From assembly GCA_012513815.1 (NCBI GenBank), contig JAAZBM010000007.1:22153-86152 (forward strand): a stretch of 64,000 bases of DNA, given 5' to 3'. Of the stretch, positions 18,074 through 45,138 are shown one piece after another. Numbering within the stretch: the first letter of the stretch is position 1; every line of letters begins with the position of its first letter. The stretch is from Candidatus Sumerlaeota bacterium (GTDB lineage: Bacteria; Sumerlaeota; Sumerlaeia; Sumerlaeales; Sumerlaeaceae). The notes beneath the pieces are model-generated. The model saw nothing but the letters and a program-made list of their open reading frames with translations, was not told the origin of the DNA and did not search any database. The position numbers were made by a program, and so were the translations under genes.

Positions 18074-21000
18074 TTAGAACAGTTCCCATGTGTCGACTGC
18101 GGAGTATCTTCTGTATACTCCCTCAACGAGTGTCGTCGTGCCGGCGGTTACCGATACCGTTTGAGGTATAGGCGCTGCCCAACGTTTCTCGTAGATTTCG
18201 CGGAATACGACACCGTATGTTCCGGGCTTGAGATCAGTGATCGTGGCTCCGGATGTATGCCATGTCAATCCGCTGTCGATGCTCCACGCTGCGCCATCCG
18301 CGACTGCATCCCCAGGCGAGATGCTGACGCTGATTGCTCCGAGGATCTGGGTGTAAGTTGCCTTGACCTCGTAGATTTGCACGTCGGTAGCGTCGACGGT
18401 CTTGTCTTCAGGTTTCGTCCAGCCTTCCACATCGTTGAACTTAACGGTGTATGTATTGCCGGAGTCGACTTTGATTGCCGTTCCGCTCTGGTACGATGTT
18501 GTGAAGTTGTCAATTGACCAGCGTGACTCTGCAGGTCCATTGATGTTCACGATGAGGGTTGCTTTGCTCTTTGTGTAGATTCCCGTGAGAATGAGTTTCT
18601 CGGACGAGGTTACATCGGCAAGCATATCCTCAGGCTTATCGTATCCGGCGACGCTCTTGAATGTTACCGTATATTGGTCAACGGGGACATTCTCTTCGAC
18701 TTCGCCAGACTTATGCCATTCGCCGGCAGCGGCCTTGTAAGGCGCACCCTTGACGAGCATCCATCCGGCTCCCTCGACAACGGCTTCAGGTTCGATGTTC
18801 ACCTGTACGGATCCAATGATTCTGGTATATGAATCATCGGCCAGTATGATTTCGGTGAGCTGGCTCTTGTCGCCGACGAATGAGAGCGGTGCGGGTGTGT
18901 TGTAACCCGTGACATCTTTGAATGTCACGAATGTTTCTTCGGAATCGAAGACTTCCGCTGTTGCATCATTGTCGAACCATGTTGTGCCGCCATCGACGCT
19001 CCACTGAGCACCTGCGGGGGCATTGCCAAGGTTGACCTTAACGAAGGCGATACGTTTGTAGACACCCATGTTACGGTCAGACGATACGCCGTACATCATG
19101 TCGCCAAGGTTGGCGTCTTTGATGACGACTGCGTCGTTGTAGAGTCCGGGGACGTTGGCAGCGGTCGTCAGTGTCTGGAGAAGCTCGCCTGTATCCGCAT
19201 TGTAGATGGACAGGCTTTGCTTTCCGCCACCGCCGCAACCGGATGCATGCGTCAGGGTGTTGTCGGCCTTGTTGTAGAAGAGACCGCCATTACCTGCTGC
19301 GCCGGCTGGGTTTGCGAACTCGCTGACGGTGACATTGCTGTAGTCGCTTGCGACGAAGGTCACCTTGTAGATGGTCTTGTATCCGTTTGCGAGGATAAAC
19401 AATGTATCGTTACCCTTTGCCGCGATGTCGCGAGCGTGATCGGCGACTCCATCAACTGTCAGGTTGAGCGTTTCGTCGTTCTTGACCAATCTAACAGACT
19501 TCTTGCTAGCCATGAAGAGTTGCGGCAAGACAACCGTTCCATCTTCAAGGACTGCGTTGCACTGGAGTCTGTCGACCGGACCAACGATGTACTTACCGCC
19601 GTCGCGCCATGTCGTATCGAGTGTACCGTCGGTCTTGAACTTCAGGGTTTCCTGAGGCGAACCGGCGCTACCATCGATTGTGACGACGACGCCACCATCG
19701 GTTGTCTGCGAGAGTCCGAGATAACCGTTTGTATTGGCACCCCAATCCGGTGTCTCGGTGTTACGGTTACGCGACGCAAGCAACGTTGCCTCTGTCGGGG
19801 CAATCTTGCCATTGGCTGCGAACTTGATAACAGCCGCAGTCTTCTGAGCATCGCCCAACGCGCCGTAGCCACCGATATAGAGGTTGTTTTCGCTATCGGC
19901 TGCGATGTGCGATGAGCTAACGGTCGCGTTGATGCCGTTCAGCGAGTAAGCACCATAGAGTTTCCATGGGACGAACTCTTCGATTTCCGTGTACTGTGCG
20001 GTCGTCTCGTAGCTGTCACCTTCGTCGATTGTGAAGTACTGAAGCGCAGGTGCTGCGTATCCGTTGACTCCCTTGAAGCTCAGGACGAAATCTCCTGCGT
20101 CAAGGTCTGTCACGGTCTGACCGCTCTCGTACCATGTTGTCCCACCATCGACTGACCACGCCGCGCCCGCAACGACTGCTTCTTCGGGTGACAAGGTCAC
20201 CTTCAGTGAGTCAATCTTCTTGTGGACGAATTGTGCTTCGATGGTGTGGTTTGCTCTGACGCGCTTGAACTCGTAGGAGGTCACTGCGCCCACAGACTCG
20301 CCATCGACAAGGACATCGGCAAGGTTGTAGCCTTCGGAGACAGCGATTGCGTATGTTTGCGACTCGTCATAAGCCAGTGTCTTTTCGCCCACAGGCTCGA
20401 TGGTGCCGCCAACATTATCTTTAACGCTTGCCGTCACTGTGTACTGTTTCATTCTGAGGAACGCCTCGACGGTATGAGTTGCTTGGACATCCTCAAATGT
20501 CACCGTAGTTGTCGGTGCGACTTCGACGCCATCGACCTTCAGGAGATAAACCTCATAAGGATCAATTGGGTTGTAAGCCGGGTCGACATCTTCGGTTGTC
20601 TTCGGTGTAATGACAACGGTGAAATCTGTGTCTTGCGGTACGTTCGTTGTCGGAGTGATTGTTGCCATATCTTCCGTGCAAGAGGTACTAACCTCGAAGC
20701 CGCGGAGGATACTCAGATTACTAATCTGAATCATGTCGGGTAGAGCAGAAGCACTGTCGGAACCCAATTTCATGTAGACGGAGCGGCCACTATACAACGG
20801 ATGTTGATTTGTGAACTCGACTCCCTGCGCTGCCAAGTCGGCAAAGGTCAGCGGCGTGACGCCATCGGCGGCAAACAACTGGTCTCCAATCTTCTTGGCG
20901 TTGAACGCGCTGTAGTCATTATCGGTATCTTCGACGAACTCGGTACCGTTCCAGATGTAGCCGACGCCGAACGAGTTAATCTCGTCAGCCTTCAGCGTTG

Positions 21001-24000
21001 CATAGTTCAGTTCCGCACCCTTTGCCGCTGTGAAGTTCTTCGCGGCGACGGGGATGATCATCGACTTATCAGCAGAGATAATAAGGAAGTTCGTGACAGG
21101 CCACATATCATCATGACCAGCGAAGATTTCCTCATTAATGTTGAATGAGAAGATACCGAAGTCGCTCAACTTGCACTCACTCAATCCCTTGTTGTAGATT
21201 CCGGCGGTTGCGCCGTCAAAATCAAGCAATAAGTTATGAGCGGTTGCGCTTTGAGCGCGAATTGAAGCGATGTGGTTCGCAACGACACTGGTTTCGGAAC
21301 TTATCCAATCACCGGCCATTGTCATGGCGTGGAAATCGGCAATCTTCACTGTCGGGTTCGTCACCTTCACCGTGGCGGGCAATGCTTCCGTAGTTGTCGG
21401 ACCACCAACCAGCACGATGTAGATTCCATAACCGGCCTTGCTAGCGCCACCGCCAACCGTGGGAGGATATTCACCCGCGGGCGGCGTTGCGATGGTCAGA
21501 TGACCGATGTCGGAGAGAACCAGACGAGCGGCAGTGGAGCCAGCTGCGTCACGAGTCATATAAGTACCGGCGTCGACACCGCGGAATTCGGGCGTCATCC
21601 AGCCGAGATTCCCGACTGTGCGTGGGCCAGCCTCGTAGACGAGGAAGTCGGCGTTCTGCAAGTCATAGAACCCGTTCATGGTATCATTGCTACCTTGATA
21701 GTACTTGTCGATGCTCAACAATGCGTAGTGTCCTTCGCCATCGGTGACCCAGACATTGAAGTATGTCTCATAGTCTGTAGTCGCTTCGGCTGTCCAGCTA
21801 ATCTCGAAGATATCGTTGAGTTTCATGCCGTTGAAGTCGCGAGACCCGAATCCAATCTTCTTGGTTCCGTAATCGGTGAATCCGGCGGTGATGCCATTTT
21901 CAATCAACTCGTAGCTATCGTCGCCCGAACCGGACGGACGGATGCAATGTCCGCCCCAGAATCCCGAAACAGGTGTCAGCGTTACGGTCTCCTCGACCAG
22001 TTCGCCGCTTGCGCCCTTGACGATGACAGGTTCGCCTGCCCAACCACTGATTGTGTCGTTGAAGGTGATAACCTGATCGACGTCGCAGAGTGCCTTAGCG
22101 GTCTGCCCACTTGCGTACCATGTTGTGCCGCCATCGAGGCTCCACTTGGCACCATTGACAGGTGCGTAGGCGGGTTCGAGGGTGACCTTGATGTCGCAGT
22201 AGATTGTCTTGTAGGCCGAGGCGGGGACCTCGTAGGTTGTGTTACCGTCAATTGTTACGTTGATCGGCGCAGGAACCTCGTAGCCCTCGACTGTCGAGAG
22301 TGTTACGGTCGCAATCGACTTATCGAAGACTTCCACCGATGCCATGCTGTCGTTCCAAGTTGTACCGCCATCGATGCTCCACTTTGCACCTTCGGGGCAC
22401 TGACTCAGGTCGACGGTCAGGGCTACGGTGTGTTTGTAGACGGCGATCTGCTTGTCAGAAGATACCGCATACATCATGTCTCCGTTGACTGCGTCTGGGA
22501 TGACCACCACATCATTGTAGGTAGCGGGAACTTCCGCACCGCTCAGTGACTGCACCAACTCGCCAGTTTCGGCGTTGTAGATGTTGATGCTCTGCTGACT
22601 GGAGGCTGCGCCCACTGTCGCATGAATGAGTGTGTTATCCAGTTCGTGGAAGTACAAGCCGCTGCGTGTGCCGGCGTTCGTGGGTTTCACGAATTCGGTC
22701 ACTGTCGCGTCTGCGAGTGTCGTTCCATTGAAGAGGACCTTGTAGATTGTTGTGTCGTTGTCGGCAAGGATGAACATTGTGTTCGACCCCATGACGACGG
22801 CGTCACGTGCGTAGTTGTTAATGTCGCCTTCGACAGCCATGTTGGTAATGACCACGTTGTCTCCGTCTTGTTCGACGAAGCGGATTGACTTGTTGTCGCC
22901 AATCATGAGGCGTGGAAGTGCCAGTGTGCCGTCTTCAAGGACTGCGTTAGCTTGGAAGCGTGGGGCTTCGGCGGTAACATCATAGATACCGTCTACGGCC
23001 CAGTCTGTGTCAACCTCGCCACCGTTCTTGAGCTTCAATGTGAAGGCAGGCGATGAAGCCGCGCCGTCCATTGTCGCGAAGATGCCGCCATCGGGTGTCT
23101 GGCTCAGGCCAAGGTAACCATTGGTCAGAGCTTCGCCCCATGCGCTGCGGACGCCGACCAGTTCGACTGTCTCGGGTGCTGTTGCGCCGTTGGCTGCGAA
23201 CTTCAGGAGTGCCGCGTCGGATTGCGAGGTGCCACCGTAGCCATAACCGCCGATGTAGATGTTCTTATCTGCGTCAGCAGTGATATGTTGCGTCGAGGCT
23301 GTCGCATTTGTCAAGCCAGCAAGTGAATAGGTTCCGAAGAGCTTCCACTGTGCGTAGTTGATGAGGCGTGTGTATTCTTTGTCGAATGTCTGGGGTTCGC
23401 CCACTACTACCGTTACCGGGAAGCTATCGGGCGCTTTGAATCCAGCCACGGACTTGAATACGATTAGATAGTCGTCAGGCAGCAAGTAGACTTTGTCTCC
23501 ACTGTTGTGCCATGGACCACTGAGCGATGTGCTCCACTGTCCTTGTGAGGTTCCGGTGATGTTGATTGTCACCGAGCCGGCTGCTGCGAATGTCACGCTA
23601 ATCTGGTGGTCAGCCTTTACCTCTGTGAAGGTGTATTCGGCCACCGCGCCGACGGACTCGCCGTCGACCGTGACATCGCTAATGATGTAGTCTTCATTCG
23701 CGGCAATCGCGAAGCTCTGGTCTTCGCCGTAGTTAACGGTGACGTCACCCGAAGGTGTAATCGTGCCGTTCTCACCGGCGCTTGCGGTAATCGTGAATGT
23801 ATCAATCGCGAACTCGACCGCAATCGTATGATCCGCTGCCACATCTTCAAATGTGTAGCTGTCAGCGACTGTGACTTCAGCTCCGTCAACGACCACCTTG
23901 GATACATGGTAACCGGTGTTGGCTGCGAAGTCGAAGGTCTGGTCGGCGCCGTAGTTAACGGTGACGTCACCCGAAGGTGTAATCGTGCCGTTCTCACCGG

Positions 24001-27000
24001 TGCTTGCGGTAATCGTGAATGTATCGATAGCGAACTCGACCGCAATCGTGTGATTTGCAACAACATCCGTGAATGTGTAACTGTCGGCGATTGTGACTTC
24101 CGCTCCGTCTACGACGACCTTGGCGATATGATAGCCGGTGTCTTTGGCGAACGCGAAGGTCTGGTCGGCGCCGTAGTTAACGGTGACTTCACCCGAAGGT
24201 GTAATCGTGCCGTTGCCACTGGCGCTTGCAGTAATCGTGAATGTATCAATCGCGAACTCGACCGCGATTGTGTGATCCGCAACCACATCTTCAAATGTGT
24301 AACTGTCGGCGATTGCGACTTCTGCTCCGTCTACGAGCACCTTGGCTACATGGTAACCGGTGTTAGCTGCGAAGTTGAAGGTCTGGTCGGCGCCGTAGTT
24401 AACAGTGACTTCACCCGAAGGTGTAATCGTGCCGTTCTCACCGGTGCTTGCGGTAATCGTGAATGTATCAATAGCGAACTCGACCGCAATCGTATGAGGC
24501 ACTGCCACATCTTCAAATGTGTAGCTGTCAGCGATTGTGACTTCCGTTCCGTCAACGAGCACCTTGGATACATGGTAACCGGTGCTGGGTGCAAAGTTGA
24601 AGGTCTGGGCTTCGCCATAAGCAACTTCGACTTCGCCAGCGGGCGTGATAGTGCCGTTTTCACCGGCGCTTGCGCTGATGACTGGGTTGTAAGATGCGGA
24701 GTGTTGCGATGTGCCATCCTTGGTGATGGCGACATCTTCGATTTCGTCAGGTGCGATCCAACCGTCAACATCCTTGAAGCTGATGGTGTACTCACCGCCA
24801 ACGGGCACCGTTGCCATTGCGGCACTGGCAAGCCAGCCACTGTCGAAGGCATCGCCACCAGCGATCTTCCACTGAGCGCCAGCTGTCACCGCTTCCGCAG
24901 GTTCAAGTGTCACGGTTTCAGTACCGGTGTAGTAACTGACGGTATCATCCGCGGGGACGACCTTTTGCTTCTCGGCACTCTTGGCAACATTCAGTGTGTA
25001 ACCGTTGAACGTACAACCTGTGTCAACCTTGACCGAGACATTTTCGCTCAATGCGTTAACACAGTATTTGCCATCAAGATCCACACCCTGAGAGAATACG
25101 CAATTCTTGATTCCCGCTGTGGCCGTACCGACCGCTGTGCCACCATTATTATCATAGACCATATTCAATCCGGTGTTTCCACCCGTAATGGTGCAGTCGT
25201 TCAAGAATGCGGTCGCATTGCCCGGGATTGTCGCCGATGCATAGTATCCACGAACCTCGAAACCTGTTTCGTTGTCGATGAATTGACAATTGTTGAAGGT
25301 TGCATAGGCACGAATACAATTGACCCAGCATTGAACGGTCGAAACGCGAGCGCCGAATGTGTTATTCGTGAATGTCGAGTTTTGGATAATCGGATTGCTG
25401 ATGCCATAAATGTCATTGACTTCAACACCGACTTCGAATCCATCAACCGAGTTGTTATCAAGCACAAGGTCGTCATTCTTACCAAGGGTCGTGAGGTACA
25501 AACCAACAACCGGCAATCTCGGGCTCGAGATATAGCGATATCCTTGTGTAAAGACATTGTCCTTGATGTTGAAGTGATATCCTGAGCCAGGACCGCCACA
25601 CGCTTCATTATACATCAGACCAACATGAACGTTGTTCGCGCTGTTGCCTGTGACGTTGCAATCGGTTATTGTCCCGGCTGGAGTCGCATTGGTATAGAAT
25701 TCGTAACGATAAGCGTATGTCGTATTCTCTGCCAAGTTGTCCACAATGTCAAGAACCACATTATTGTAAGCTAAGATTCCCATAAAGTTGTCGGTGAAGT
25801 AGTTCCCTTGAGCAAGGATGCCATTGGAACTATATTGTGCTTCGCCGGAGCCGGTATACTGGACAAGATATCCATAACAGGAGATGCCTTTGACAATGTT
25901 ATTCGTCAGATTGATGTTTGCATTGCCAATGTAAACACCCGGAGCGAAGGACACCTTTATGCCTACGCTGCCAACATCCAAGCCATCGAACGTAAAGCCG
26001 GAAATGGTAACATCACGGGTCGAGATACCAAATACGGATTCCTCTTCCGTTACACATGGCATGTTGTTAACCAACACAGCCTCGGCCGTGCGATCGGTAT
26101 TCGGGAAACTCTTGACTCCATTGCCGTCAACAGCATAAGCCGGAAGTGTCGCGTTCGGGCCAAGAATCGTGAGTGCCTTGTCAATACTCACTTCTTCATT
26201 AAAGATGTACTCACCGGCGGCCACGTGAATGATTTCGCCTTCGCGAGCACATTCAACCGCGAACGGAATCGTCGCAAACGGATTTGCTTCGCTACCGTCG
26301 CCGGTCTCGTCGCTACCTGTGGTCGCGACGTACCAGTCGAGGACACCGGCTGCAGGCGTGTATGTTGCAGTTGCTTCTGCCGTTTCACCCTCGTTGACTT
26401 CCACTTCTTGTTCAGAAGGTGCAATCCAACCATAGACAGGCTTGAACGTGACAGGATAGAAGCCGGCATCAACCTTTGCAATCTCACCGGACTTGTACCA
26501 TGTCGTACCGCCGTCGATGCTCCATGCGCCGTTGTATGTGGCACCTTGCGGCAACAATGTCACTTTGATTTGTGACTTTGCAACGTAAGTACCTGTCGCA
26601 GTGAATGTACCATCTTTGTCGATGTGCATGAATCGAGGAGCAGGAGTCGCGAAGAACTCGATATCCTTGTAGGTGATTGTGTAGTCACCGGCAGGAACCG
26701 CGAGTTGCTCGGCGCTGTTCTTCCAACCGCTGTCGTAGGCGTCGCCACCGGCGATCTTCCACTGAGCACCAGCCGTGATAGCTTCCTGAGGAGCAAGCGT
26801 CACGGTCAGGTCACCGGTGTAGTAAGTCACGGTCGTCGTATCATTCGGGATGACCTTCGCCACGGCCTTCGCCGGGTTCAAGAGCATGCCGTTAAACGTG
26901 CAACCTGTGTCAACCTTGACAGTCTGGTCGAGCGGACTTATGAGTGTTCCGCTTGTGCCAACTTCGACGCAAACTGTCTCGTCACCGACCTCGCCCTGCG

Positions 27001-34636: not shown

Positions 34637-34890
34637 GTCTTTTTTTTAGAAAATCATTTTTTTTTGAGGGTCGCTTTTTTCAGGTTATGACGCTCAATAG
34701 GTGAAATTTCGACGCCTGAAAGATTGAAAATATTCTTGTTTATACTATGATTTACAAAGCATTAATATTTATATATTATATGTCATATGCATCTTTTTAC
34801 CCCGTTTCGACATTTTTACAAGGGGCGAAATGCCATCAGAAAACCAAAATTTAGCCTCGGTTTTGAGAAACTCGCAGACGTCTTTTTCGG

Positions 34891-37692
34891 CTATTTTTCT
34901 TCGCAAGCAAGTCGTCTTAACAGCAACGGAATGACATCCGCGTACCAAATAACGGTTCCTTTGGCACCACTTTTGCCAACAATATTCATCTGATTGATGA
35001 GTTCATCCGCGCTAAGTTTTTCGGCATTAAGGGCAAAACACACCCGACCAAATTTGTCTCCTACCAGTTTCTGCGTCTCTGCCATTGTGCCTACGAAATC
35101 CATATAAGCGCCGACCACCAGATAGTCAATCAAATCTCTTTGCAGCCACAAATCCCAACTCTGGGCGACGGTATCCATTTCTGATGGCCATGTCGCGTAG
35201 GACGACATCGGCATCTCCGGTTTTTCGGCGCGCAACGCCTCACGCAAAATCTTGACTCCGGCCGCGTTCTTCTCTCGTTTCCACGCAAGAAACTCAGCCG
35301 CGTTTGTTGCGCTCGTGAGTGGTTTCCCGGTTTCTGTCTCGAACGTTTGTCGGCAGTAATCACAGTAGCATCGTGTCTGATTCGCGTACTTCAGGCGGTC
35401 GAACTGGACTTCATCGACGGGGTATTTTCGGACAACTTCGAGCATGATTTCGGAAAGGAGTTTGTAGCTTGCGGGATTGGATGGACAAAGCGTGTAGAAG
35501 ACGCCGAAGTTTCGCACGTTGTTGTCGGGGTTGCCCTTTGCGTCGAGGGAAATCAGGTCCTTATGCTTGTTCATGAATTCCTGTCTTGCCTGTCCCTCGG
35601 CGCCGCCCTTCGCGTCGTGTCCGACGAAGAGTCCGTACTCGAACCACGCCACGCATTTCATTCCACGGTCGTGAATCGCCTTGACGGCATCGCCGTAGGC
35701 ATCGGCGCGACCGGTTGCCGCAATGGCAGGGTCAAACGGCGCGAGGGCGCTATCGGGGTAGGACACAAGTCCGCGATACCACGCGTCGAGCATGACGGTG
35801 TTGATACATGACTGCTTGAGCATATTGAGTTTTCGGGCGAAAGCCTCGGGTGATTCCTGCAAGCTTTTCCCCACAATCCATGTACCTCGGAGTTCGTCCG
35901 GGCGTGGTAAGTCGACCTTGGTCAAGGTTGCGCTGTTGGCTCTGTTGGTTCCGGCAGGCGCGGCATTGACGGTGTTGCCCAACATCGCTTGGACTTCGGG
36001 CGTGATGAGTTCAGCTTGGAAGAACTGATAACCCTTAAGCTGGTATCGCCGAACATTCATAATCTGTCGGGCGTATTCGGCCGGTGTGACCGTATAGGCA
36101 TCGTCGTGTTTGCCGACGCCATAGAGCAGATGTTCGCGCAAGAGCGAGCTTTGTTTCGCGAGCTTCGCGATGCCCTGCGCGTTTTCCTTGAAGTAACTCA
36201 TTGGGCAAACCCAGTCGACAAGCCCCATGCCAATCCACTTTTCGAGCGGCAGTGAAATGGTGGTTTCCTCCCTGTCATTAAAGAACACCGCAATATCCAC
36301 TCTTGGCGCGGAAGTCTTGGGGTCATCGGGCATGACACGCGCATCGAGTGCGGCGCGCAATTCGGTGAGGAGCTCCTCCGAACCCGCATACAGTTCCTCA
36401 TTTTGGCGCTGTGGGTTCATGGGGATTTCTGCCAGATGTTCCTTGCAGTAATCGCAACGGCAAAATCCCTGCGACTCGGTCAGATTCTCCACATAGTTGT
36501 AGAGGTAATCCATTGCGAGACATGTGGCGTTCGATGAGTTGACCATTTCGATATAGGATTTCACAAGCATCTCGCGCACTTCGGGACGGCGCAGGCACAG
36601 CCATTCGCTTTTCTTACCTAGCTCCGTGCTGCCCGCCGCAGTGCGCATCAGCCATTCCGGCTTAGCGAACTCGGCAGGGAGTTTGCCCTTGCTGAGGAAT
36701 CCGTTTTGCACCCAAAGCCACAGATTCATTCCGTAGTCGTTGCCCAAGTTTGCGTAGGAAGAAATGGGCATGACGATTTGGTCGGAGGGCTGGCTGTTCC
36801 ACAATCCCTGATTTGTTTGGGGGTTGATGCTGCCTCCCCACCGGAAGGCTTCGAGGATGATTGTGTTGAACCCGGCCTTGAGCAGTCGCTGAATTCGGGT
36901 TTTCACAGCGGACTCGGACTTCTCGGACGACCGCACGAGGACGGCGCGGATTTCGTTTTCGGGCAGTGCGTCCTTGCCAAGCAGCAGCAATTCACCGGCG
37001 ATGACTTCTTCCTCGACGCGCGCTCGCAATTCCTGAATCTGTTTGAGCGTCGGATTCTTCTGTTGTGCCGTGTCGATTTCATCGTTGATTGCGTCCAGTC
37101 GTTCGAGCGTCTTACGCATAAACTCCTGCGCCGCCGTCGTGGTTTCTTTGGTGGTCGTTGTTTCATTTTTGAGACGTTGTCGCAAATCATTCAGTGGCAC
37201 TTTTAGCTCGGAGAAACGATACGCCAAATCCGGTTTGTGAACAAACCATTTTTTGTTTGGCATAAGTTGCAATTCATCATTGCGGCTGATGCGATCCGGT
37301 TTGACGTCGAGTTGCCGCACACCACGCGCGATGACAAGGAATCCGTCCGCCGGAATTTTGGTTGGCGCAAAGCCGAGTTCGGTGACTCGACCATTGGAGA
37401 CACTTATGCAAAAGACAGAATCGGGATACCGGAGCAATGTCTCGGAGACGGTTGTCACGGGTGCGCCGGACGGCGTCCACAGTACTAATGACCCGGGATG
37501 CGGAAACTCGTCAATCGCATCGATAAAGATTGCGCCTGCCGGAATTTTCTTCGCCTCGGCGATTTCGCTCGCGGAAGGAGTCACGTCGCGCAACAACCAG
37601 AACTCATATAACACCACCCCAAGCAAAATGCCCATAGCAATGTACAGCGTGCGCTTGAGCAGAGTCAATAACAAACCGCGAAAATCTTTCAT
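34891..37692 (-). CDS. Membrane-anchored protein with two GH42/GHL-like TIM-barrel halves, each carrying a C...CxCxxC (Cys4 zinc-type) motif
   Basis: The N-terminal TM is LYIAMGILLGVVLYEFWLL. Half 1 reads LCLRRPEVREML...GFCRCDYCKEHL (about 36445-36466). Half 2 reads LCPSNPASYKLL...DEVQFDRLKY..TRCYCDYCRQTF (about 35344-35370). The pattern resembles the GH42 Zn site, CxCxxC followed by F. AAGGAA precedes ATG 37692. Confidence 0.65.
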   Translation of the reverse strand: MKDFRGLLLTLLKRTLYIAMGILLGVVLYEFWLLRDVTPSASEIAEAKKIPAGAIFIDAIDEFPHPGSLVLWTPSGAPVTTVSETLLRYPDSVFCISVSNGRVTELGFAPTKIPADGFLVIARGVRQLDVKPDRISRNDELQLMPNKKWFVHKPDLAYRFSELKVPLNDLRQRLKNETTTTKETTTAAQEFMRKTLERLDAINDEIDTAQQKNPTLKQIQELRARVEEEVIAGELLLLGKDALPENEIRAVLVRSSEKSESAVKTRIQRLLKAGFNTIILEAFRWGGSINPQTNQGLWNSQPSDQIVMPISSYANLGNDYGMNLWLWVQNGFLSKGKLPAEFAKPEWLMRTAAGSTELGKKSEWLCLRRPEVREMLVKSYIEMVNSSNATCLAMDYLYNYVENLTESQGFCRCDYCKEHLAEIPMNPQRQNEELYAGSEELLTELRAALDARVMPDDPKTSAPRVDIAVFFNDREETTISLPLEKWIGMGLVDWVCPMSYFKENAQGIAKLAKQSSLLREHLLYGVGKHDDAYTVTPAEYARQIMNVRRYQLKGYQFFQAELITPEVQAMLGNTVNAAPAGTNRANSATLTKVDLPRPDELRGTWIVGKSLQESPEAFARKLNMLKQSCINTVMLDAWYRGLVSYPDSALAPFDPAIAATGRADAYGDAVKAIHDRGMKCVAWFEYGLFVGHDAKGGAEGQARQEFMNKHKDLISLDAKGNPDNNVRNFGVFYTLCPSNPASYKLLSEIMLEVVRKYPVDEVQFDRLKYANQTRCYCDYCRQTFETETGKPLTSATNAAEFLAWKREKNAAGVKILREALRAEKPEMPMSSYATWPSEMDTVAQSWDLWLQRDLIDYLVVGAYMDFVGTMAETQKLVGDKFGRVCFALNAEKLSADELINQMNIVGKSGAKGTVIWYADVIPLLLRRLACEEK

Positions 37693-37739: not shown

Positions 37740-38285
37740 CTAATTGCGGCGCAAATGTTCGCTCTGACGCCAGACCAAATCCCCCTTACTGAAGACGCCA
37801 TTCGTCGGGTCATAGGGTGTTCCGGCCTGATCCCACTTTTGGTCGGGACCACTCGATGCCATCATCCAGAAACCAAACCACCCACGCTTCTGAGCTTGCA
37901 CGGGGGTATCCTCCTGCCACTCAAAATACTTGTAAGAAGCGCCAATCGGAGTGCGGGGTTCGGGGTAAGGGTCGATGGGCAAAGAGGATATGTACGCAAT
38001 CGGCGTCGTCAGATCATGGGGCAGATAATATTTGTCGGTGAAGACATGCCACGAACCTTTTGGGTAACGCCCCATATCAAGGCGATACATTTCGAGACAA
38101 CCGGCCAAGGTACGATGCTCGGCTTTAACACGGGCACAAACCGCGCGTGAGCGTGCCTCGCTGAAATTCGCGAGGGCCATCGCGGACAAAAGACCAAGAA
38201 TCGCAACAACACACAAAAGCTCGATAAGCGTGAATCCATCAGCACGACAAGGCTTCTGTTTCGTTCGAAAAGGATACATCATCAT
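37740..38285 (-). CDS. Type II secretion pseudopilin-like protein (GspG-like, prepilin N-terminal cleavage/methylation domain)
   Basis: The leader is MMMYPFRTKQKPCRADG/FTLIELLCVVAILGLLSAMALANF, with G-1, F+1 and E+5. The segment RVKAEHRTLAGCLEMYRLDMGRYP resembles GspG. AAGGAGG lies 5 nt before the ATG. Confidence 0.85.
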   Translation of the reverse strand: MMMYPFRTKQKPCRADGFTLIELLCVVAILGLLSAMALANFSEARSRAVCARVKAEHRTLAGCLEMYRLDMGRYPKGSWHVFTDKYYLPHDLTTPIAYISSLPIDPYPEPRTPIGASYKYFEWQEDTPVQAQKRGWFGFWMMASSGPDQKWDQAGTPYDPTNGVFSKGDLVWRQSEHLRRN

Positions 38286-38412: not shown

Positions 38413-38444
38413 CAAAAAAAGAAACCCTTGATTTCTCAAGGGTT
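38413..38444 (-). terminator. Rho-independent terminator after tRNA-Ala
   Basis: An 8-bp stem AACCCTTG/CAAGGGTT (38423-38430 / 38437-38444) is followed on the minus strand by TTCTTTTTTT. Confidence 0.75.
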
Positions 38445-38450
38445 AAAACA

Positions 38451-38526
38451 TGGTGGAGTGAAGGGGGTTCGAACCCCTGACCTCAGGCTTGCAAAGCCCG
38501 CGCTCTCCCAGCTGAGCTACCACCCC
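38451..38526 (-). tRNA. tRNA-Ala (anticodon TGC), CCA encoded
   Basis: The reverse complement is GGGGTGGTAGCTCAGCTGGGAGAGCGCGGGCTTTGCAAGCCTGAGGTCAGGGGTTCGAACCCCCTTCACTCCACCA. The G3:U70 identity pair is present and the anticodon loop is TTTGCAA. Confidence 0.95.
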
Positions 38527-38597: not shown

Positions 38598-40448
38598 CTA
38601 ATCTTTGATTTCTTCTTCCGGCGTTTTTGTTTGCATATACTTGATGGCCGCATAGCGATGCGAGCAAGTCGTTGTCAAGTCGCCAAGACCCTCAATTTTC
38701 TGCAGCTTTTCCAAATCTTTTTTCGCGAGCGCATTGTTGGGCAAAAAGTTGCTGTGCTTCGTGCTCGGATACCATCCCTCATCGATGGCGAGCCGTTGCG
38801 CTCCTTGGAACGCGGTGTCGTCCCATGGTAAATCGATATACCAGAATATCGGTTGTCCCTGTCGAATAAGCGTATGCTGCAATTCGCGAAGCAGTTTTTT
38901 GTCGGCGCGAATTTCCTCGGGCGTTTTGTTAATCTTGACCGCCATCGCGGCGACCGTTCCGGCGGCTTCGCCGATTTCCCATTCAACCGGATGCAGCCGT
39001 GTACTGCCGTTGGAGAGATGCGTCACACCAATGTTTTTCTGACCCGCGAGGACATTGCTTCCGCCTTGAGGAATGAGCGCTCCGAGCGGAATCTGGAACG
39101 GTTTGGTGGCTTTACTTCCGGGATGCTTGGGCTTGAGTGGACGCTTGGCATCGCCGACGCACGAGTGAATATCGATGGAGAAATAAAGTCCGGTGGCAAC
39201 AGCGTCATCATAGAGTTTCGCGCGCACGGTCGGCTGCGAGGTAATGTCGTTTTGCTTGATTGTGGTGAGCGCTTTGATGCGGCGTGATTCGCGAATGTAG
39301 GGTTCCATCGCCAGCCCATCGCTTGTCCCCAACAAATCAGTGCGCAGTTTCAACTCGGGATAACCTTTACCGCCGCCATCCTCGGGATCGCGTGGACATT
39401 CGGTCTGGAGCCAGTAGAGGAAACCAAGAGACATCTGTTTTCCCTCGTTGCGAATCTCTTCGCGTTCGGCAGGCGTGGCGCTGATAAGGTCACGTTCGGC
39501 ATAATCATTGCTGCCCCAGTTGATGATGGCCAAATCGTTTTTGATGAGCGGGTCATCAAACTGCGCAGCAGCGAGACAACGGCGATACTGCCAAAAGCCA
39601 TTCATTTTTTCCGGTGTCGTGTGCCTGAAAGGATAGCCATTGAGTGAATAGTGCTTTTTGAAGTGATCATAGAGCGGTGGCTTGGCAATTGTGTTGTTGG
39701 TGTTCGGGCAATATTCCACGATATAGCAGAAGGTGAAGCACTGATTTCCCTTGGGGTCGGGGTCGCCGGGATAGGCGGCCGGTTCGCCGGTTTGCGCATG
39801 CGACTCGATTCCTACCGAAAAAGGAACACCGGCGAGTTCGAGGAAGTCACCCAACAGCGTCGCCTCGACGATATACTTTGGCGCGTAGACCGTTGTGACT
39901 GTCGTTCCGGACTCGTCCACAGTCTCGGCAGTGACCGTCGCCACGCGTTTGCCATCGTCAGTCTTCGTCACGGTAGTCGCGCGCGTGTTCGGGACAATCT
40001 TCAGCCGCCCCGTATCGACGACGGGTTTCAGCAATTGAACCAGAGCGATGCGTGCGGACTCGGGCGTATGGGTGAGGCGGCTGACCCACGAATTACCGGG
40101 GTCAAAAACTTTATGATAACTGTAAGAGGATTTCGAGCGTTTGTAAGCGCTCAGAAACTGATTGCGGACGAGGGTACGGAAGAAGGAAAAGCTCCGCGAC
40201 GCGGTGTTTTCAATGTATCCGTGTTCGTCGGACGCAGGCAGACCTTGCGAAGTGAACTGCCCGCCAATCCACGGAGTCTCTTCGATGAGCACCGTCTGCG
40301 CGCCGTTCTGCGCTGCTGCCATGGCTGCCGTCACGCCGCCGGTGCCGCCACCGACAACAAGGACATCAACGGGAACAACCGTTGCGGATAAACACGCGGC
40401 GCTCGATATCAACGATAGTATTCCGGTATTAATGAGTTTTTTTTTCAT
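38598..40448 (-). CDS. Secreted/lipoprotein-like FAD-dependent oxidoreductase (FAD_oxidored-type)
   Basis: The signal is MKKKLINTGILSLISSAACLSA, followed by the Rossmann motif VDVLVVGGGTGGVTAAMAAAQNGAQTVLIEE. GGAG precedes ATG 40448. The gene sits 20 nt downstream of the preceding GHL10 gene. Confidence 0.8.
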   Translation of the reverse strand: MKKKLINTGILSLISSAACLSATVVPVDVLVVGGGTGGVTAAMAAAQNGAQTVLIEETPWIGGQFTSQGLPASDEHGYIENTASRSFSFFRTLVRNQFLSAYKRSKSSYSYHKVFDPGNSWVSRLTHTPESARIALVQLLKPVVDTGRLKIVPNTRATTVTKTDDGKRVATVTAETVDESGTTVTTVYAPKYIVEATLLGDFLELAGVPFSVGIESHAQTGEPAAYPGDPDPKGNQCFTFCYIVEYCPNTNNTIAKPPLYDHFKKHYSLNGYPFRHTTPEKMNGFWQYRRCLAAAQFDDPLIKNDLAIINWGSNDYAERDLISATPAEREEIRNEGKQMSLGFLYWLQTECPRDPEDGGGKGYPELKLRTDLLGTSDGLAMEPYIRESRRIKALTTIKQNDITSQPTVRAKLYDDAVATGLYFSIDIHSCVGDAKRPLKPKHPGSKATKPFQIPLGALIPQGGSNVLAGQKNIGVTHLSNGSTRLHPVEWEIGEAAGTVAAMAVKINKTPEEIRADKKLLRELQHTLIRQGQPIFWYIDLPWDDTAFQGAQRLAIDEGWYPSTKHSNFLPNNALAKKDLEKLQKIEGLGDLTTTCSHRYAAIKYMQTKTPEEEIKD

Positions 40449-40468
40449 ATCATTTCTCCTGTTTAGAT

Positions 40469-42496
40469 TTAAAATCCATACTCTACCCATTCGCCGACTT
40501 TTGCCTTGGGAACGGGTTCAAACTTAACGGCATCCATGCTCATTCGACCTTTGACATTGGACGAATTTGGATTGGTATTGGTCAGACGAACGCAAGTGTA
40601 GCTACCACGCGGCAAAGAGACCGGCCCTGCAAGCTTGTACCATTTGTTGACAACCGCCGCATTTGTATAGGACAAATCGACAGTGCCGCTCGTCAGTGAA
40701 GTTTTGTCGGTAACAACATCCCAGACGACGCCCGGGGAAACATTGTTGCTACCACTCGAAAGTGTGACGTAAATATTGTAATTGCCGGCCGCGGTCAGAC
40801 GAGGACGGAAGACGCCGCTTGCGCCCTGTCCCCCCGTGCCGATGTAGCGAGCGCCGCTACCGATCAAGCCGGGCGCCGTGCTCTTGGCGACGGTGCGACC
40901 AAAGTACTGAGAACTGGTGGTCAATTCTTCGGAGTAGTTCGTGTTCAAAACGCCCGCGGAATCATAAGTCTCAATGATGATTTCTTCGGGGTCTTCCGTC
41001 GGTTCGGGAACAACGTTGGTGAACTGCGCGTCAATGTTTGTGACTTTTCCGACACGCACAATCACGCCCTTTTCCACGACGGAAGCTTTGCCCCATTTGG
41101 AAAAGGTCAGCGTGTGAGTTGTCCCGGCGGGCACATTCAGAATCGCGTAAAAACCATCGGCGCCCGTCAGGTGATTGTATGGCGCAGTACCGCTCGCATT
41201 TTTCAGTGTATCATCAGCGAGAACAACACACGCATCCGTCAGAGGATTTCCCTCGGCGTCACGCACAGTGCCGGTGAGGATGCCGCAAGTCGGCGAGGTC
41301 TTCCAAGGCATCGAGGGAACCGGCGCCGGAGCGGCGAACTGTTGTTTGATGGCATCGAGATAAGTGCCAATGCTGCTGTATGAATAAACGCTCCATCCCG
41401 AGGCACCTTGCGAGCGCATGTTGCGATACTCCCATAACAGCTCTTCGATGGGGACAGTGGCGGAATCGGTCGCGCTGCCCGCAACAATCGGGCGATGAGC
41501 ATCCGTGCGTTCCAACCAGTCAGCCAAGAGATTTTGGAAATTGACACCGGTATAGTATATCTGCGGCACAACAAAATCGAGGCAACCTTCCTTGACCCAG
41601 CGGTAGCCATCCTGATAACAGTAGCGATACGCATTGCCATAACCCTGATGATGCGATGTTTCATCCGTTAGTAGCGCACCCAGAGGCGTGGCGCTCATCT
41701 TGCACTTAGGCCGCGTCATGGCAATCTGGCCATAGATGCGGCGCAAGTCGTCAGTTATCTGGCGGCGCATAAAGTCGCCCCAGCCCACGCCATCGGGGTT
41801 TCCTTCGCCATAAAAACGCCGGACTGTAACCGGGTCATGGGAGTAGGTGTCGTTGTACGAAGTCGGTGTGCGCACGCGATCCAGATGCACACCATCAACG
41901 GTGTAGTTATTGACGACATACAGAATCTGTCGGCGTGTCCAGAGGCTAGCCTCGGGATGACCGGGACTCATCCAGAGATATCCGCTCGACGGTTGTTTGA
42001 CCGGGTTGCCGTCCCTGTCATGAATCAGCCAGCAGTCGTCACCTTTCGCGTTGGGCCCGTGAAGGTTATACAGATGCTGTGGTGTGGTCTCGGCGGGCGG
42101 CGTGATGCGGCTCATCACGTGCGTGTTGATGTAAGCGTGGAACTCCAGACCATTCTTGTGAGCGGCTTCGAGCGCATACTGCAACGGATTCCACCCGGGA
42201 TTTTTCCATTGATAAGTGGTCGCCCATGGTTCATCCGGCGAAGGATAATGAACATCGCACTGGCCGCGTACCTGAAACAGCACAGCGTTAAAGTTATTCG
42301 CGGCAAGCGACGACATGCAGTTGTCGATGTAAGTTTTTGCCTTTGTCTGGTCGGCGTTCGGCCACTCTAGGCGAGTCACCCATGCCATTCGGTATTCTTC
42401 GTTTGTGTTCTGCGCATACAATTCGCGCGGGCTTGCGAAGTCGGCACAAATCATGCACAGTAATAGCAGGTAGCGAATGAACCCGTGGCTTGGCAT
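40469..42496 (-). CDS. GHL10 (DUF187-like) TIM-barrel putative glycoside hydrolase with CarboxypepD_reg-like and golvesin/CBM-like C-terminal domains
   Basis: The GHL10 core shows YRMAWVTRLEWP, NFNAVLFQVRGQCDVHYPSPDEPW and GLEFHAYINTHVM. A GILTGTVRDAEGNPLTDACVVL domain follows. The C-terminus reads ..GRMSMDAVKFEP.. and ends in GEWVEYGF. A signal peptide is present. Confidence 0.8.
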   Translation of the reverse strand: MPSHGFIRYLLLLCMICADFASPRELYAQNTNEEYRMAWVTRLEWPNADQTKAKTYIDNCMSSLAANNFNAVLFQVRGQCDVHYPSPDEPWATTYQWKNPGWNPLQYALEAAHKNGLEFHAYINTHVMSRITPPAETTPQHLYNLHGPNAKGDDCWLIHDRDGNPVKQPSSGYLWMSPGHPEASLWTRRQILYVVNNYTVDGVHLDRVRTPTSYNDTYSHDPVTVRRFYGEGNPDGVGWGDFMRRQITDDLRRIYGQIAMTRPKCKMSATPLGALLTDETSHHQGYGNAYRYCYQDGYRWVKEGCLDFVVPQIYYTGVNFQNLLADWLERTDAHRPIVAGSATDSATVPIEELLWEYRNMRSQGASGWSVYSYSSIGTYLDAIKQQFAAPAPVPSMPWKTSPTCGILTGTVRDAEGNPLTDACVVLADDTLKNASGTAPYNHLTGADGFYAILNVPAGTTHTLTFSKWGKASVVEKGVIVRVGKVTNIDAQFTNVVPEPTEDPEEIIIETYDSAGVLNTNYSEELTTSSQYFGRTVAKSTAPGLIGSGARYIGTGGQGASGVFRPRLTAAGNYNIYVTLSSGSNNVSPGVVWDVVTDKTSLTSGTVDLSYTNAAVVNKWYKLAGPVSLPRGSYTCVRLTNTNPNSSNVKGRMSMDAVKFEPVPKAKVGEWVEYGF

Positions 42497-42499
42497 TCT

Positions 42500-44506
42500 T
42501 TAGAACATCTCCCAATACTCGACGGACGCGGGATAGTCGGGTTCGAATTTGGCGGAATCCATCACAAAGCGGCCACGTGTGCCTGCAGAACTCTGGTTGT
42601 TGTTTGTGACCTTGAGTGTGGTGTGGCGGCCTTTGGGAAGCTGAATAGATGTCAGTTTGTACCACTTGTTGACGATGTTGGCGTTAGTGTATGAGAGGTC
42701 GATTGTGCCGGAGGCTTTGACGACGCTGTCGACGAGAATCTGCCAAGTAGCGCCGGGCGAAACGTTGTTCGTGCCGTTTGAGAGGGTGAGGTAAACGTTG
42801 TAGTTTGCGTCGCCTGTCAGGTTGGGCGTGAAGGAGCCGGAGGCACCAACGCCGTAGTCTCCAATATAACGTCCGCCAGTGCCCACGAGACCGGCAGCGG
42901 TGCTCTTCGCGGTTGTGTTGGCGAAGGAATAGCCTGCTGTTGAATTTGTTTCTGCGTATCCGCCGGCCAATTCTCCGGACGCGACGCGGCATTCGACAAT
43001 GATTTGTGTCGCGGGGTCGGGGTCGGGAACGGCGCTACTGAATTGGCAATCAACTTGAGTCACTTTGCCTGCGGTAACAGCCACGGCCGTCTTGGTTACG
43101 GACACTTTGCCGTTCTTGCTAAAGGTCAGTTTGTGTGCCGCGCTCACGGGAACATTGAGAATCGCGTAGAAGCCATCTGCGCCCGTCAGATGATTATAGG
43201 GAGCAGTTCCGGAAGCATTCAACAGCGGGTCATTTTCAAGCACGATACGCGCATCCGTCAGCGGATTGCCGTCCGCGTCAGTCACATATCCCGTGATGAT
43301 TCCTTTGGTGGGTGTGGCCTTCCATGGCATGACAGGAACGCTCGCCTTGCTTGCGAAACGATTTATTCTGAGCGCATTCCAGTAATCTCCCATGCTGCTA
43401 TACGAGAAGATACACCATCCGGCCGCGCCCTGTGTACGGGTTTCCTGCTGCTCGGCCAGTGTCTGTTCGACAGTGCGATTTCCTCCGTTGGTTGTGCTTC
43501 CTCCGACGACAAAGCGCTCGCCACCACTGTGCGAGAGCCAATCAGCCAACAGTTTCTCGTAGGGATGCGAGCTGCCAACCGTCCAGTAAATCTGCGGAAC
43601 CATGAAGTCGACAACGCCTTCTTGCAGCCAACGGAAACCGTCTTGGAACCAGTTCCATTTCGCCTGATTCCCTGTCCCCTGATATTGTGTGGTGCTGTCG
43701 ACAAGAATGATGCCTCCGGGCGCGGCGCTGACCTTACACTTGGGGCGTACCATGGCGATTTGGCCATAGATACGGCGGAGGTCATCCGTGATTTGCCGAC
43801 GCATGAAGTCGCCCCAACTAACGCCGTCGGGGTTTCCCTCGCCGTTGAATCGCGCGACACTGACAGGGTCATGCGAGTAGGTCTTCGACGGGCAACGAAT
43901 GCGATCAAAATGCACACCGTCAACCGCATAGTTTTTGACAAGATACATAACTTGTTGACGTGTCCAAAGGGAGGCCTGCGGGTGTCCGGGGCTAATCCAC
44001 AGATATTCGTCTGAGTCGTAGACGGGATTGCCATTTTCGTCGTGAATGAGCCAGCAGTCTTCGCCGGCGGCCGTCGGGCCGTGGAGGTTGCAGATGTGTT
44101 CGGGCGTGGTGGAACGCGTGAGGACTGAGCCGCTGATGACGTGAGTGTTAATGTACGCATGGAACTCAAGCCCTTTGTTGTGGGCTGCCGTCAGGGCATA
44201 TTGGAGCGGGTCCCAACCGGGGTTTGTGTAGTTATAGTTCGAGGACCATGGCTCGTAAGGCGATGGATAGTGAACATCGCACTGCCCGCGTACCTGAAAT
44301 AGCACGGCGTTGAAGTTGTTGGCAGCCAACGTATTCATCACGTTGTCGATGTTGTTTTTTCCCTTTGTCGCGTTGGCGTTCGGCCACTCAAACCGGCTCA
44401 CCCACATCATCCGATATTCTTGCGCGCAAATAACTGTGGACAACAAACTCAGACTGATAAACGCGACGAGCACGAGCAAAACTCTCGCAAACGGATTTCT
44501 TTTCAC
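42500..44506 (-). CDS. GHL10 (DUF187-like) paralog with CarboxypepD_reg-like and CBM-like C-terminal domains
   Basis: YRMMWVSRFEWP, NFNAVLFQVRGQCDVHYPSPYEPW and GLEFHAYINTHVI define the core. The protein ends in ..RFVMDSAKFEPDYPASVEYWEMF. Its stop lies 3 nt before the next gene's ATG. I chose the GTG at 44506 (AAGAGG 9 nt upstream, MKRNPFARVLLVLVAF). The ORF-track TTG at 44515 is an alternative. Confidence 0.8.
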   Translation of the reverse strand: MKRNPFARVLLVLVAFISLSLLSTVICAQEYRMMWVSRFEWPNANATKGKNNIDNVMNTLAANNFNAVLFQVRGQCDVHYPSPYEPWSSNYNYTNPGWDPLQYALTAAHNKGLEFHAYINTHVISGSVLTRSTTPEHICNLHGPTAAGEDCWLIHDENGNPVYDSDEYLWISPGHPQASLWTRQQVMYLVKNYAVDGVHFDRIRCPSKTYSHDPVSVARFNGEGNPDGVSWGDFMRRQITDDLRRIYGQIAMVRPKCKVSAAPGGIILVDSTTQYQGTGNQAKWNWFQDGFRWLQEGVVDFMVPQIYWTVGSSHPYEKLLADWLSHSGGERFVVGGSTTNGGNRTVEQTLAEQQETRTQGAAGWCIFSYSSMGDYWNALRINRFASKASVPVMPWKATPTKGIITGYVTDADGNPLTDARIVLENDPLLNASGTAPYNHLTGADGFYAILNVPVSAAHKLTFSKNGKVSVTKTAVAVTAGKVTQVDCQFSSAVPDPDPATQIIVECRVASGELAGGYAETNSTAGYSFANTTAKSTAAGLVGTGGRYIGDYGVGASGSFTPNLTGDANYNVYLTLSNGTNNVSPGATWQILVDSVVKASGTIDLSYTNANIVNKWYKLTSIQLPKGRHTTLKVTNNNQSSAGTRGRFVMDSAKFEPDYPASVEYWEMF
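43503..43642 (-). repeat. 140-bp near-identical tract shared with 60765-60904 (GHL10 paralogs)
   Basis: Direct comparison gives 137/140 identical bases, CCGACGACAAAGCG[C/T]TCGCCACCACTGTGCGAGAGCCAATCAGCC...GGAAACCGTC. Flanking paralog DNA is visibly more diverged. Confidence 0.85.
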
Positions 44507-44610
44507 TACTGTCAACCTCTTTTATGCTAATAATGACAATAATAAACCGCCGAAATTATTCGGAAAGTATAGCGAAGTTTGTCGCTTTATTTATCGACGC
44601 ACTCTCGGCG

Positions 44611-45138
44611 CTAATTCATCAGCCCACGCAACTTGGACGACAGCGACGACACGACTCCTGTTCGGGCCTTGACTGTCCCGGCCGGATTGCCAATAAAAAG
44701 CTGCGCCCAGTAGTTTTTGCCCGACGCGTCGCGGGCCAACCCCATCTCCTCAAAGTTGGGGTTGAGGATGTTGTGCCGATGTCCGCGCGACTTCATCCAA
44801 GCGGAGAAAACCTCCGACACTGACTCCTGCCCCATGGCGATATTCTCGGCACCTGTCGTATAGCGCACACCTGCTTTGTCCATCAAATTGAAGGGTGTTC
44901 CTAATTTGCGCGAATAGTGGCTGAAGTAGCCTCGTGCCGCCATATCGTTCGCCTTGGTTTTGCATAGCCGTGTCAGCGTCGCGTTGAGCTTGAGCGGACG
45001 CAAACCGGCCTCGGAGCGAGCTTTGTTGACAAGCGTCAGAACACTCGCGGCATCCTTGTCTGCCTCCGAGGTTTCCGAGGCCGCCATGACCTGTACCACT
45101 GCCAGCAAGCAAATAACAATCAACACAAAACGAAACAT
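44611..45138 (-). CDS. Secreted CAP/SCP (PR-1/YkwD-like) domain protein
   Basis: The signal is MFRFVLIVICLLAVVQVMAAS. CAP motifs are GYFSHYS, GAENIAMG and WMKSRGHRHNILNPNFEEMG. An alternative start at ATG 45156 (MREESRMF..) abuts the ispE stop. Confidence 0.8.
   Translation of the reverse strand: MFRFVLIVICLLAVVQVMAASETSEADKDAASVLTLVNKARSEAGLRPLKLNATLTRLCKTKANDMAARGYFSHYSRKLGTPFNLMDKAGVRYTTGAENIAMGQESVSEVFSAWMKSRGHRHNILNPNFEEMGLARDASGKNYWAQLFIGNPAGTVKARTGVVSSLSSKLRGLMN

Follow-up and report, generated by a model that had tools for sequence, protein, structure and literature searches.

Two described enzymes of the GHL10 family (Pfam PF02638) cut the glycan strands of peptidoglycan: Cwp19 of Clostridioides difficile (PDB 5oq2/5oq3), which is a peptidoglycan lytic transglycosylase (PMC6016235), and DigH (YddW) of Escherichia coli, which acts at the division site and there breaks down denuded glycans of peptidoglycan (PMC12288456). 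Here we compare with them a set of putative GHL10 enzymes found in a 64,000-nucleotide (nt) stretch of Candidatus Sumerlaeota bacterium (GCA_012513815.1, contig JAAZBM010000007.1, positions 22,153 to 86,152 of the forward strand), henceforth the window, in whose coordinates positions are given. The region in question (18074-45138, minus strand throughout) encodes a CAP/SCP protein, two GHL10 proteins (GHL10-A and GHL10-B), an FAD oxidoreductase of the family PF12831, tRNA-Ala, a GspG-like pseudopilin, a membrane-anchored protein of 933 amino acids (aa) and a giant repetitive protein. The initial annotation had taken these genes for a single extracellular machine for the binding and processing of a complex glycan, its enzymes being of no established substrate and the giant protein its scaffold. 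For GHL10 the statement about substrate is outdated, given Cwp19 and DigH. Building on what was observed directly (gene structure, homology, fold, and where synteny is kept or lost), we read the region, with a probability of roughly 0.55, as a mosaic of at least four independent units rather than one machine, the core of which would consist of exported peptidoglycan-glycan hydrolases and a PF12831 flavoenzyme.

The features on which the argument draws are given below, from a map of open reading frames (ORFs), a tRNA scan, translations and Pfam searches; export of window proteins was judged from a reading of their N-termini.

61879-64000, minus strand: GT4 and GT9 (heptosyltransferase-type) glycosyltransferases, upstream of the 677-aa and 492-aa paralogs; GT9 runs off the window end.
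58224-61768, minus strand: two further GHL10 + CarboxypepD_reg paralogs (677 aa, 59735-61768; 492 aa, 58224-59702), from Pfam.
45158-45985, minus strand: ispE (4-diphosphocytidyl-2-C-methyl-D-erythritol kinase); TIGR00154 at 194 bits (cut-off 138.7), GHMP_kinases_N.
44611-45138, minus strand: CAP/SCP protein of the bacterial YkwD type, 175 aa, exported as judged from its N-terminus; PF00188 at 80 bits.
42500-44515, minus strand: GHL10-A; GHL10 and CarboxypepD_reg by Pfam, weak Golvesin_C; predicted signal peptide.
40469-42496, minus strand: GHL10-B; by Pfam of the same architecture as GHL10-A, Golvesin_C at E=7.7e-6.
38598-40448, minus strand: FAD oxidoreductase, 616 aa, with a predicted Sec-type signal peptide; PF12831 at 293 bits.
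38451-38526, minus strand: tRNA-Ala(UGC) (tgc), from the tRNA scan.
38423-38444, minus strand: terminator-like hairpin and T-run, i.e., a 9-pair stem followed by TCTTTTTTTG; consensus scan.
37740-38285, minus strand: GspG-like pseudopilin, 181 aa, with a prepilin leader and GFTLIEL motif; Pfam N_methyl/T2SSG.
34891-37692, minus strand: 933-aa membrane-anchored tandem-GHL10 protein; Pfam GHL10.
34427-34890, minus strand: AT-rich intergenic spacer of 464 nt, 5' of the giant gene; sequence scan.
18074-34426, minus strand: giant exported protein, 5450 aa from the first ATG, predicted signal peptide MFKHIKSLVVAVALLVTCCCGSANA; DUF1565, Flg_new_2, NosD.

As a description of the genes the initial annotation was accurate: the ORF map, tRNA scan and translations returned all of its genes on the minus strand at the positions it gave, its gaps of 3, 20, 47 and 464 nt are exact, Pfam agrees with its domain calls (CAP, GHL10, FAD oxidoreductase, pseudopilin, giant beta-helix), and the products do appear to be exported or membrane-anchored. 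The co-directional run likewise keeps to one strand throughout, but its limit at 45138 has to be moved, as the run extends to 45985 and includes ispE. In itself, a run of seven protein genes on a single strand is nothing unusual, even with a 16-kb gene among them.

To compare gene neighbourhoods, we retrieved 79 additional loci with GHL10 from genomes of Sumerlaeota and Planctomycetota/Phycisphaerae and searched 85 loci with all window proteins (tblastn). The sole relative at an informative distance (~70% identity) is a locus from GCA_040364295.1, which we call L001; its identity to the window is 71% for the FAD gene, 70% for GHL10-A and 70% for GT9. L001 carries the uninterrupted run ftsZ-GT2-GT9-GT4-GHL10 (660 aa)-GHL10 (490 aa)-GHL10 (665 aa)-FAD oxidoreductase-tRNA-Ala(UGC). 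By reciprocal identities, its three GHL10 genes are the orthologs of the window's 677-aa, 492-aa and GHL10-A genes, while GHL10-B is an extra paralog with no ortholog of its own in L001; the order GT9-GT4-677-492 at 58-64 kb of the window is also the order in L001. Because of these orthologies and the continuous order, we consider the two GHL10 clusters of the window to derive from one ancestral block. They are now parted by ~14 kb of housekeeping genes (URO-D, an alpha/beta hydrolase, clpB, tRNA-Arg, a permease, GH3, kup, ispE and CAP). The CAP gene is part of this intervening segment and lies outside the ancestral block; in L001 it is not found beside GHL10.

The tRNA-Ala(UGC) gene (11912-11987 in L001) marks the exact end of the conserved synteny. 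Downstream of it, L001 has a poly(A)-polymerase-family gene on the opposite strand and then unrelated genes, and the pseudopilin, 933-aa and giant genes of the window all sit past this break. The tightly spaced GHL10-GHL10-FAD unit is conserved in a second species, with the 20-nt spacing between GHL10 and FAD genes kept in both. Neighbourhood conservation, which had been suggested as a check on the single machine, told largely against it: only the GHL10-FAD-tRNA-Ala core is kept in L001, and the pseudopilin, 933-aa, giant and CAP genes are not kept with it.

The wider sample was similar, and the gene set of the 27-kb region was largely not kept together in relatives. An FAD ortholog adjoins GHL10 only in L001 and in L002, a same-species contig; CAP has matches in just two planctomycete loci; the giant protein has no homolog in any of the 85 loci; and the nine matches to the 933-aa protein in these loci are all confined to its C-terminal GHL10 domain, with no full-length relative among them. 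Neither the pseudopilin nor the tandem-GHL10 protein nor the giant protein is encoded in linkage with GHL10 at any of the 79 further loci. An all-against-all clustering of ~990 ORFs found no partner gene conserved over 76 GHL10 loci. Within the species the picture is uniform, i.e., the same gene order recurs on a 14.4-kb contig of GCA_028703265.1 and on one ENA contig, and the contigs that bear the 933-aa protein (14 of 14) all belong to it, each breaking inside the repetitive giant gene.

The region would accordingly divide as follows. The first unit is ispE-CAP: 19 nt separate these two genes and 95 nt separate CAP from GHL10-A, and CAP is probably co-transcribed with ispE and not with the GHL10 genes. 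The second would comprise GHL10-A, GHL10-B, the FAD oxidoreductase and tRNA-Ala, with the hairpin after tRNA-Ala probably ending its transcription. In this genome the housekeeping genes would have split an ancestral envelope block, GT9-GT4-GHL10-GHL10-GHL10-FAD-tRNA-Ala, of which the second unit would be the downstream half. The pseudopilin and the membrane-anchored tandem-GHL10 protein would form a third unit, and the giant repetitive surface protein, which has a long upstream region to itself, a fourth. A promoter scan returned 13 sites against 9.2 expected from shuffled sequence, no better than chance. A genomic island at tRNA-Ala was also considered and rejected, as no integrase was found and G+C content is not distinct.

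The substrate of the core unit can be approached from its two GHL10 proteins, which are paralogs of ~670 aa with 58% identity. GHL10-A is represented by a public protein of 100% identity (P0121, ‘family 10 glycosylhydrolase’; annotated start 44506, 668 aa), and it has a predicted signal peptide, a TIM barrel (~aa 30-400), a CarboxypepD_reg beta-sandwich (404-490), a Golvesin_C-like beta-sandwich (505-660) and a disordered tail. PF02638 was detected in all five GHL10 proteins of the window at 100-121 bits (cut-off 27.9). Against Cwp19 in the PDB, GHL10-A scores E=3e-31 in a sequence search and E=6e-57 in a profile search, and the two share 22% identity. Its model (predicted local distance difference test, pLDDT, 91.7) aligns with Cwp19 in Foldseek at a template-modelling (TM) score of 0.85, normalised to Cwp19, with a root-mean-square deviation of 2.5-2.9 Å. 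Against E. coli DigH (b1491, K-12 record) BLASTP gives E=2e-26, and DigH matches the GHL10 family alignment with an hhalign probability of 99.9%. By analogy with these enzymes, the GHL10 proteins most likely cut peptidoglycan glycan strands. The option left by the initial annotation that the substrate is the cell's own envelope polymer comes close to this; its undescribed single machine does not.

Both known enzymes also differ from the window proteins. Cwp19 shares with them the Pfam family and TIM-barrel fold, and it too is exported (as is predicted for the window proteins) and bears a C-terminal wall- or glycan-binding module; however, it is anchored by CWB2 repeats in a Gram-positive S-layer, whereas the window proteins have CarboxypepD_reg, a Golvesin_C-like domain and a short tail. 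DigH has a homologous catalytic domain and is divisome-localised, and the GHL10 block of L001 lies just downstream of ftsZ; yet DigH is a single-domain lipoprotein of 439 aa from a single-copy gene, unlike the window's four paralogs, predicted to be secreted, with two extra domains and its membrane-anchored tandem version. More than one GHL10 copy was found in only 4 of 81 GHL10-bearing loci, compared with six GHL10 domains in the 64 kb of the window, and a lineage-specific expansion of exported GHL10 enzymes is a true feature of this region.

Genomic context elsewhere also involves peptidoglycan. Many GHL10 homologs are fused to VanY (PF02557) or to beta-lactamase-like domains (PF13354/PF00144). 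In 10 loci of Phycisphaerae/Planctomycetota the GHL10 gene adjoins one for a ~1030-aa protein with Golvesin_C, an Amidase_3-like region and fn3, and at three of the ten the GHL10 genes come after those for a MurQ-like SIS protein and an SSF transporter. The full set in such a locus (L066 6922-19986, also L073 and L084; Phycisphaerae) runs MurQ-like SIS, SSF transporter, GHL10, GHL10 + CarboxypepD_reg, and a ~1040-aa Golvesin_C/Amidase_3-like/fn3 protein, with an amidohydrolase (Amidohydro_1) further downstream in L066; it looks like a locus for salvage or catabolism of peptidoglycan or N-acetylmuramic acid.

In the mechanism that we propose, the GHL10 proteins would be exported by Sec and would cleave the glycan backbone of peptidoglycan as muramidases or lytic transglycosylases, like Cwp19 and DigH, and the Golvesin_C domain would keep them on the polymer. 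Their target could be the sacculus of the cell itself, in remodelling or division, or wall debris of foreign cells, in scavenging; the data do not choose between the two. The PF12831 flavoenzyme might act on the same polymer or its products and, also more tentatively, the disordered C-terminal W-x-[LM]-F tail might serve as a sorting or retention tag shared by several products, including the giant protein.

The flavoenzyme matches PF12831 over the full length of the profile (positions 1-416), and its model is a two-domain flavoprotein (pLDDT 91.8) of the GxGxxG FAD-binding fold, with no PDB relative above a TM score of 0.31; sequence and fold searches returned generic flavoproteins only. We found no functional literature on PF12831 (FAD_oxidored) and no member with a known substrate or solved structure, and here the earlier statement that the family has no established substrate still applies. 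PF12831 is a very large family (7611 matches among 8000 candidates scored), in which, from a reading of N-termini, signal peptides are confined to the closest relatives of the window protein and a lipoprotein subgroup; the sub-branch of the window differs from the rest of the family in its signal peptides and GHL10 neighbour. Other FAD homologs carry F5/8-type-C or SLH domains. In a gene from Sumerlaeia that is truncated at the end of its locus (L069 20073-21515, minus strand), the C-terminal portion of PF12831 is joined to Golvesin_C (96 bits) and a W-x-V-Y tail; a GHL10 gene lies ~8.5 kb away. Three observations speak for a true link between the FAD and GHL10 proteins: the 20-nt spacing and trailing tRNA in two species, the F5/8-type-C or SLH fusions and the L069 fusion.

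Golvesin_C itself is classed as CBM6/35/36-like, i.e., akin to these families of carbohydrate-binding modules (PMC9166713). The second beta-sandwich of GHL10-A and GHL10-B is a divergent member (E of 1e-3 to 8e-6 here, strong in homologs). The domain occurs attached to GHL10, to the amidase-like protein and to PF12831, and its presence on three protein types therefore fits a common target polymer.

The three proteins GHL10-A, GHL10-B and giant end in ..VEYWEMF (42500-42523), ..GEWVEYGF (40469-40492) and ..AVDTWELF (18074-18097), respectively, and in the GHL10-A model the last ~11 residues have no secondary structure, with pLDDT below 50 over the final five. We counted such tails as W-x-[LIMFVA]-[FYHEDW] at the C-terminus or one residue before it: they were present in 29 of 77 long GHL10 homologs (Sumerlaeota, Planctomycetota), none of 43 short ones, none of 120 FAD homologs and 1 of 144 other GHL10 representatives. 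The tail may be an undescribed sorting or retention tag, and it is the sole evidence that joins the giant protein to the GHL10 enzymes. Common targeting within the region has some basis in the shared CBM-like domain and the C-terminal tail; the machine with a giant scaffold of the initial annotation is unsupported. In the form W-x-[LIMFV]-[FYHED], the tail follows a linker of 10-20 aa, is predicted to be disordered and comes with no transmembrane helix; it is also found on secreted Sumerlaeota ORFs with no Pfam domain, and examples elsewhere are L010 13344-14198, L080 3826-5283, L041 1474-5253 and L069 20073-21515.

Several points weigh against a mosaic with a peptidoglycan-cutting core. The synteny comparison rests on one suitably distant relative, the transcription units were drawn from spacing and a consensus hairpin alone, and, as loci and not whole genomes were searched, relatives could have the pseudopilin, 933-aa and giant genes linked at some other place in their genomes. 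Sec-exported FAD enzymes are unusual, and most PF12831 members look cytoplasmic. The Amidase_3 match of the ~1030-aa protein is below threshold (23 bits against a Pfam cut-off of 27). The predicted peptidoglycan activity of this GHL10 clade is drawn from homology and context, and PgaB, a hydrolase of poly-N-acetylglucosamine (PNAG), is the next fold neighbour (TM score ~0.7). The active site proposed for Cwp19 comprises Asp196/Tyr197, Arg132, Gln77 and Trp36. In the window clade Asp196 is replaced by an invariant Arg (FDRIR vs. FDDY) and Tyr197 by Ile; therefore, chemistry or substrate may differ, although the equivalent of Asp195 is retained in all six GHL10 domains of the window. The catalytic assignment in Cwp19 is itself tentative (PMC5765458), and another GHL10 protein, DogH, is reported to be active on starch (PMC9967864).

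The best surviving alternative, which we consider possible but unlikely, is that the GHL10-FAD module forages for an exogenous polysaccharide other than peptidoglycan (chitin-like, PNAG, extracellular polysaccharide or alpha-glucan), as would suit the predicted scavenger lifestyle of Sumerlaeota. The loss of Asp196, PgaB as the second-best fold match and the reported starch activity of DogH all agree with it, as do the multiple secreted paralogs with a CBM6/35/36-like domain (PMC9166713), the prediction that Sumerlaeota degrade chitin and cellulose (PMC8092238) and the GH3 gene inside the window. However, the nearest characterised relatives by both sequence and fold act on peptidoglycan, the fusion partners (VanY, beta-lactamase-like) and neighbours (amidase-like, MurQ-like) are peptidoglycan-specific, and the core in L001 stands beside ftsZ and envelope glycosyltransferases, not beside sugar transporters or catabolic genes.

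We find it improbable that the FAD oxidoreductase is functionally unconnected to GHL10, its adjacency being a lineage-specific accident around a tandemly duplicated autolysin family. More distant FAD homologs (45-54% identity) do have unrelated neighbours; HGW-BRC1-1 carries its FAD ortholog (54% identity) and its GHL10 genes on separate contigs; 77 GHL10 loci have no FAD gene; and most PF12831 members have no signal peptide. An accident would nevertheless have to accommodate a 20-nt spacing and trailing tRNA kept over two species at ~70% identity, the gain of signal peptides by the closest FAD relatives, and the joining in L069 of PF12831 to a Golvesin_C domain of the GHL10 type and a tail. 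(The FAD homolog of HGW-BRC1-1 adjoins, at L003 11930-18762, a type I restriction-modification system with HsdM, HsdS and an HsdR-like protein and an embedded DarT-Macro pair, DarTG-like.)

A single machine running from CAP to the giant gene, with the beta-helix protein as its scaffold, is very improbable: its genes are co-directional with apparently exported products, the region holds four GHL10 domains, a W-E-[LM]-F tail is common to the giant protein and GHL10-A/B, and the order is identical in every assembly of the species, but L001 keeps only GHL10-FAD-tRNA-Ala between different flanks, the giant protein occurs in none of the 79 GHL10 loci and CAP in two, ispE is the closer of the two neighbours of CAP, the run is interrupted by a terminator-like hairpin and by a gap of 464 nt, and the beta-helix modules match no lyase or hydrolase family significantly.

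If the mosaic with its peptidoglycan-cutting core is correct, the GHL10 + CarboxypepD_reg + Golvesin_C family, which is expanded and widespread in Sumerlaeota and Planctomycetota, gains a concrete substrate (peptidoglycan glycan strands), and the very large orphan family PF12831 gains its first testable context. It would also draw attention to a candidate C-terminal sorting tag in phyla about whose protein export little is known. As regards the turnover of cell walls and the recycling of necromass in uncultured lineages, we see here a useful lead and no surprise; the role of PF12831 and the C-terminal tail are loose ends of modest interest. A bolder proposal would have GHL10 and PF12831 form an undescribed hydrolase-oxidoreductase system that degrades peptidoglycan or a related amino-sugar polymer, with both enzymes and the amidase-like protein targeted by Golvesin_C and the W-x-[LIM]-[FY] tail acting, in Sumerlaeota and Planctomycetota, as a new signal for sorting to the surface or retention there, giant protein included; we hold this whole combination to be doubtful.

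Turning to the units beyond the tRNA, the 933-aa protein consists of an N-terminal transmembrane anchor, an N-domain of ~200 aa with a coiled coil, and two GHL10 domains. The double TIM barrel described in the initial annotation holds, given that the two halves (35893-37005 and 34894-35895) align colinearly (E=5e-4) and 39 of 40 distant relatives of the N-terminal half are PF02638 proteins. A direct profile comparison of this half with the GHL10 alignment was not significant (probability 3%), and its assignment to GHL10 is made because of its relatives only. The label ‘GH42/GHL-like’ fares less well, as the protein has no PF02449 match and only 4 of the 40 distant relatives have a weak one. 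In each half the beta-4 Asp is followed by a CxCxxC motif (GFCRCDYC and TRCYCDYC), which is conserved in the sole full-length relative (P0242); it may be a metal site and may resemble the zinc site of GH42. The full architecture is very rare, with one other protein, on a 2.9-kb contig, among 1.84 billion representatives, and two metagenome scans found no relatives.

The pseudopilin resembles GspG, the major pseudopilin of type II secretion, in its prepilin leader, GFTLIEL methylation motif and size, but it scores 50.3 bits against the GspG equivalog TIGR01710 (cut-off 88.85) and is an orphan, no GspD/E/F-type or pilus assembly genes being found within the window. Genes with a prepilin motif are no rarity in these genomes, numbering ~5-8 per Mb over the loci that we fetched. 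The CAP protein remains below threshold both for YkwD (TIGR02909, 135 bits vs. a cut-off of 171) and for DalA (NF052539, 61 vs. 200); DalA is a septal peptidoglycan-binding lipoprotein (PMC10470522), and the resemblance is a lead only.

The giant protein is built of 17 small Ig-like repeats of ~65 aa, four DUF1565 beta-helix modules of ~500 aa (34-59% identical to one another), duplicated modules (two of 600 aa and two of 325 aa) and tandem Flg_new_2 repeats. No enzymatic family reached significance over the protein, the beta-helix modules significantly matched DUF1565 only, and its C-terminal half had no Pfam match. From its sequence it looks like an adhesin or surface-layer protein: it shares with giant, adhesin-like beta-helix/Ig-repeat surface proteins the signal peptide, DUF1565 modules, Flg_new_2 repeats and big internal duplications, and differs from them in having no specific family match and no homolog in the fetched loci. 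The 464-nt spacer in front of its gene matched no Rfam family, and a leader of the cyclic di-GMP type was rejected, as Rfam found no riboswitch there.

Just downstream of the giant gene region lie uncharacterised envelope genes, namely a 1322-aa ORF at 8983-12951 (minus strand) with no Pfam family and a faint DUF748 match only and, beside it at 13518-16144 (plus strand), a membrane protein with weak resemblance to Wzz and a second membrane protein, of 430 aa. Further along, a fluoride riboswitch (RF01734; 4257-4333, plus strand; 36.9 bits against a gathering score of 34) is directly followed on its 3' side by an ORF for a CrcB-like fluoride channel (4304-4720, plus strand; GGF..GFTTFSTF motifs), which is an ordinary arrangement.

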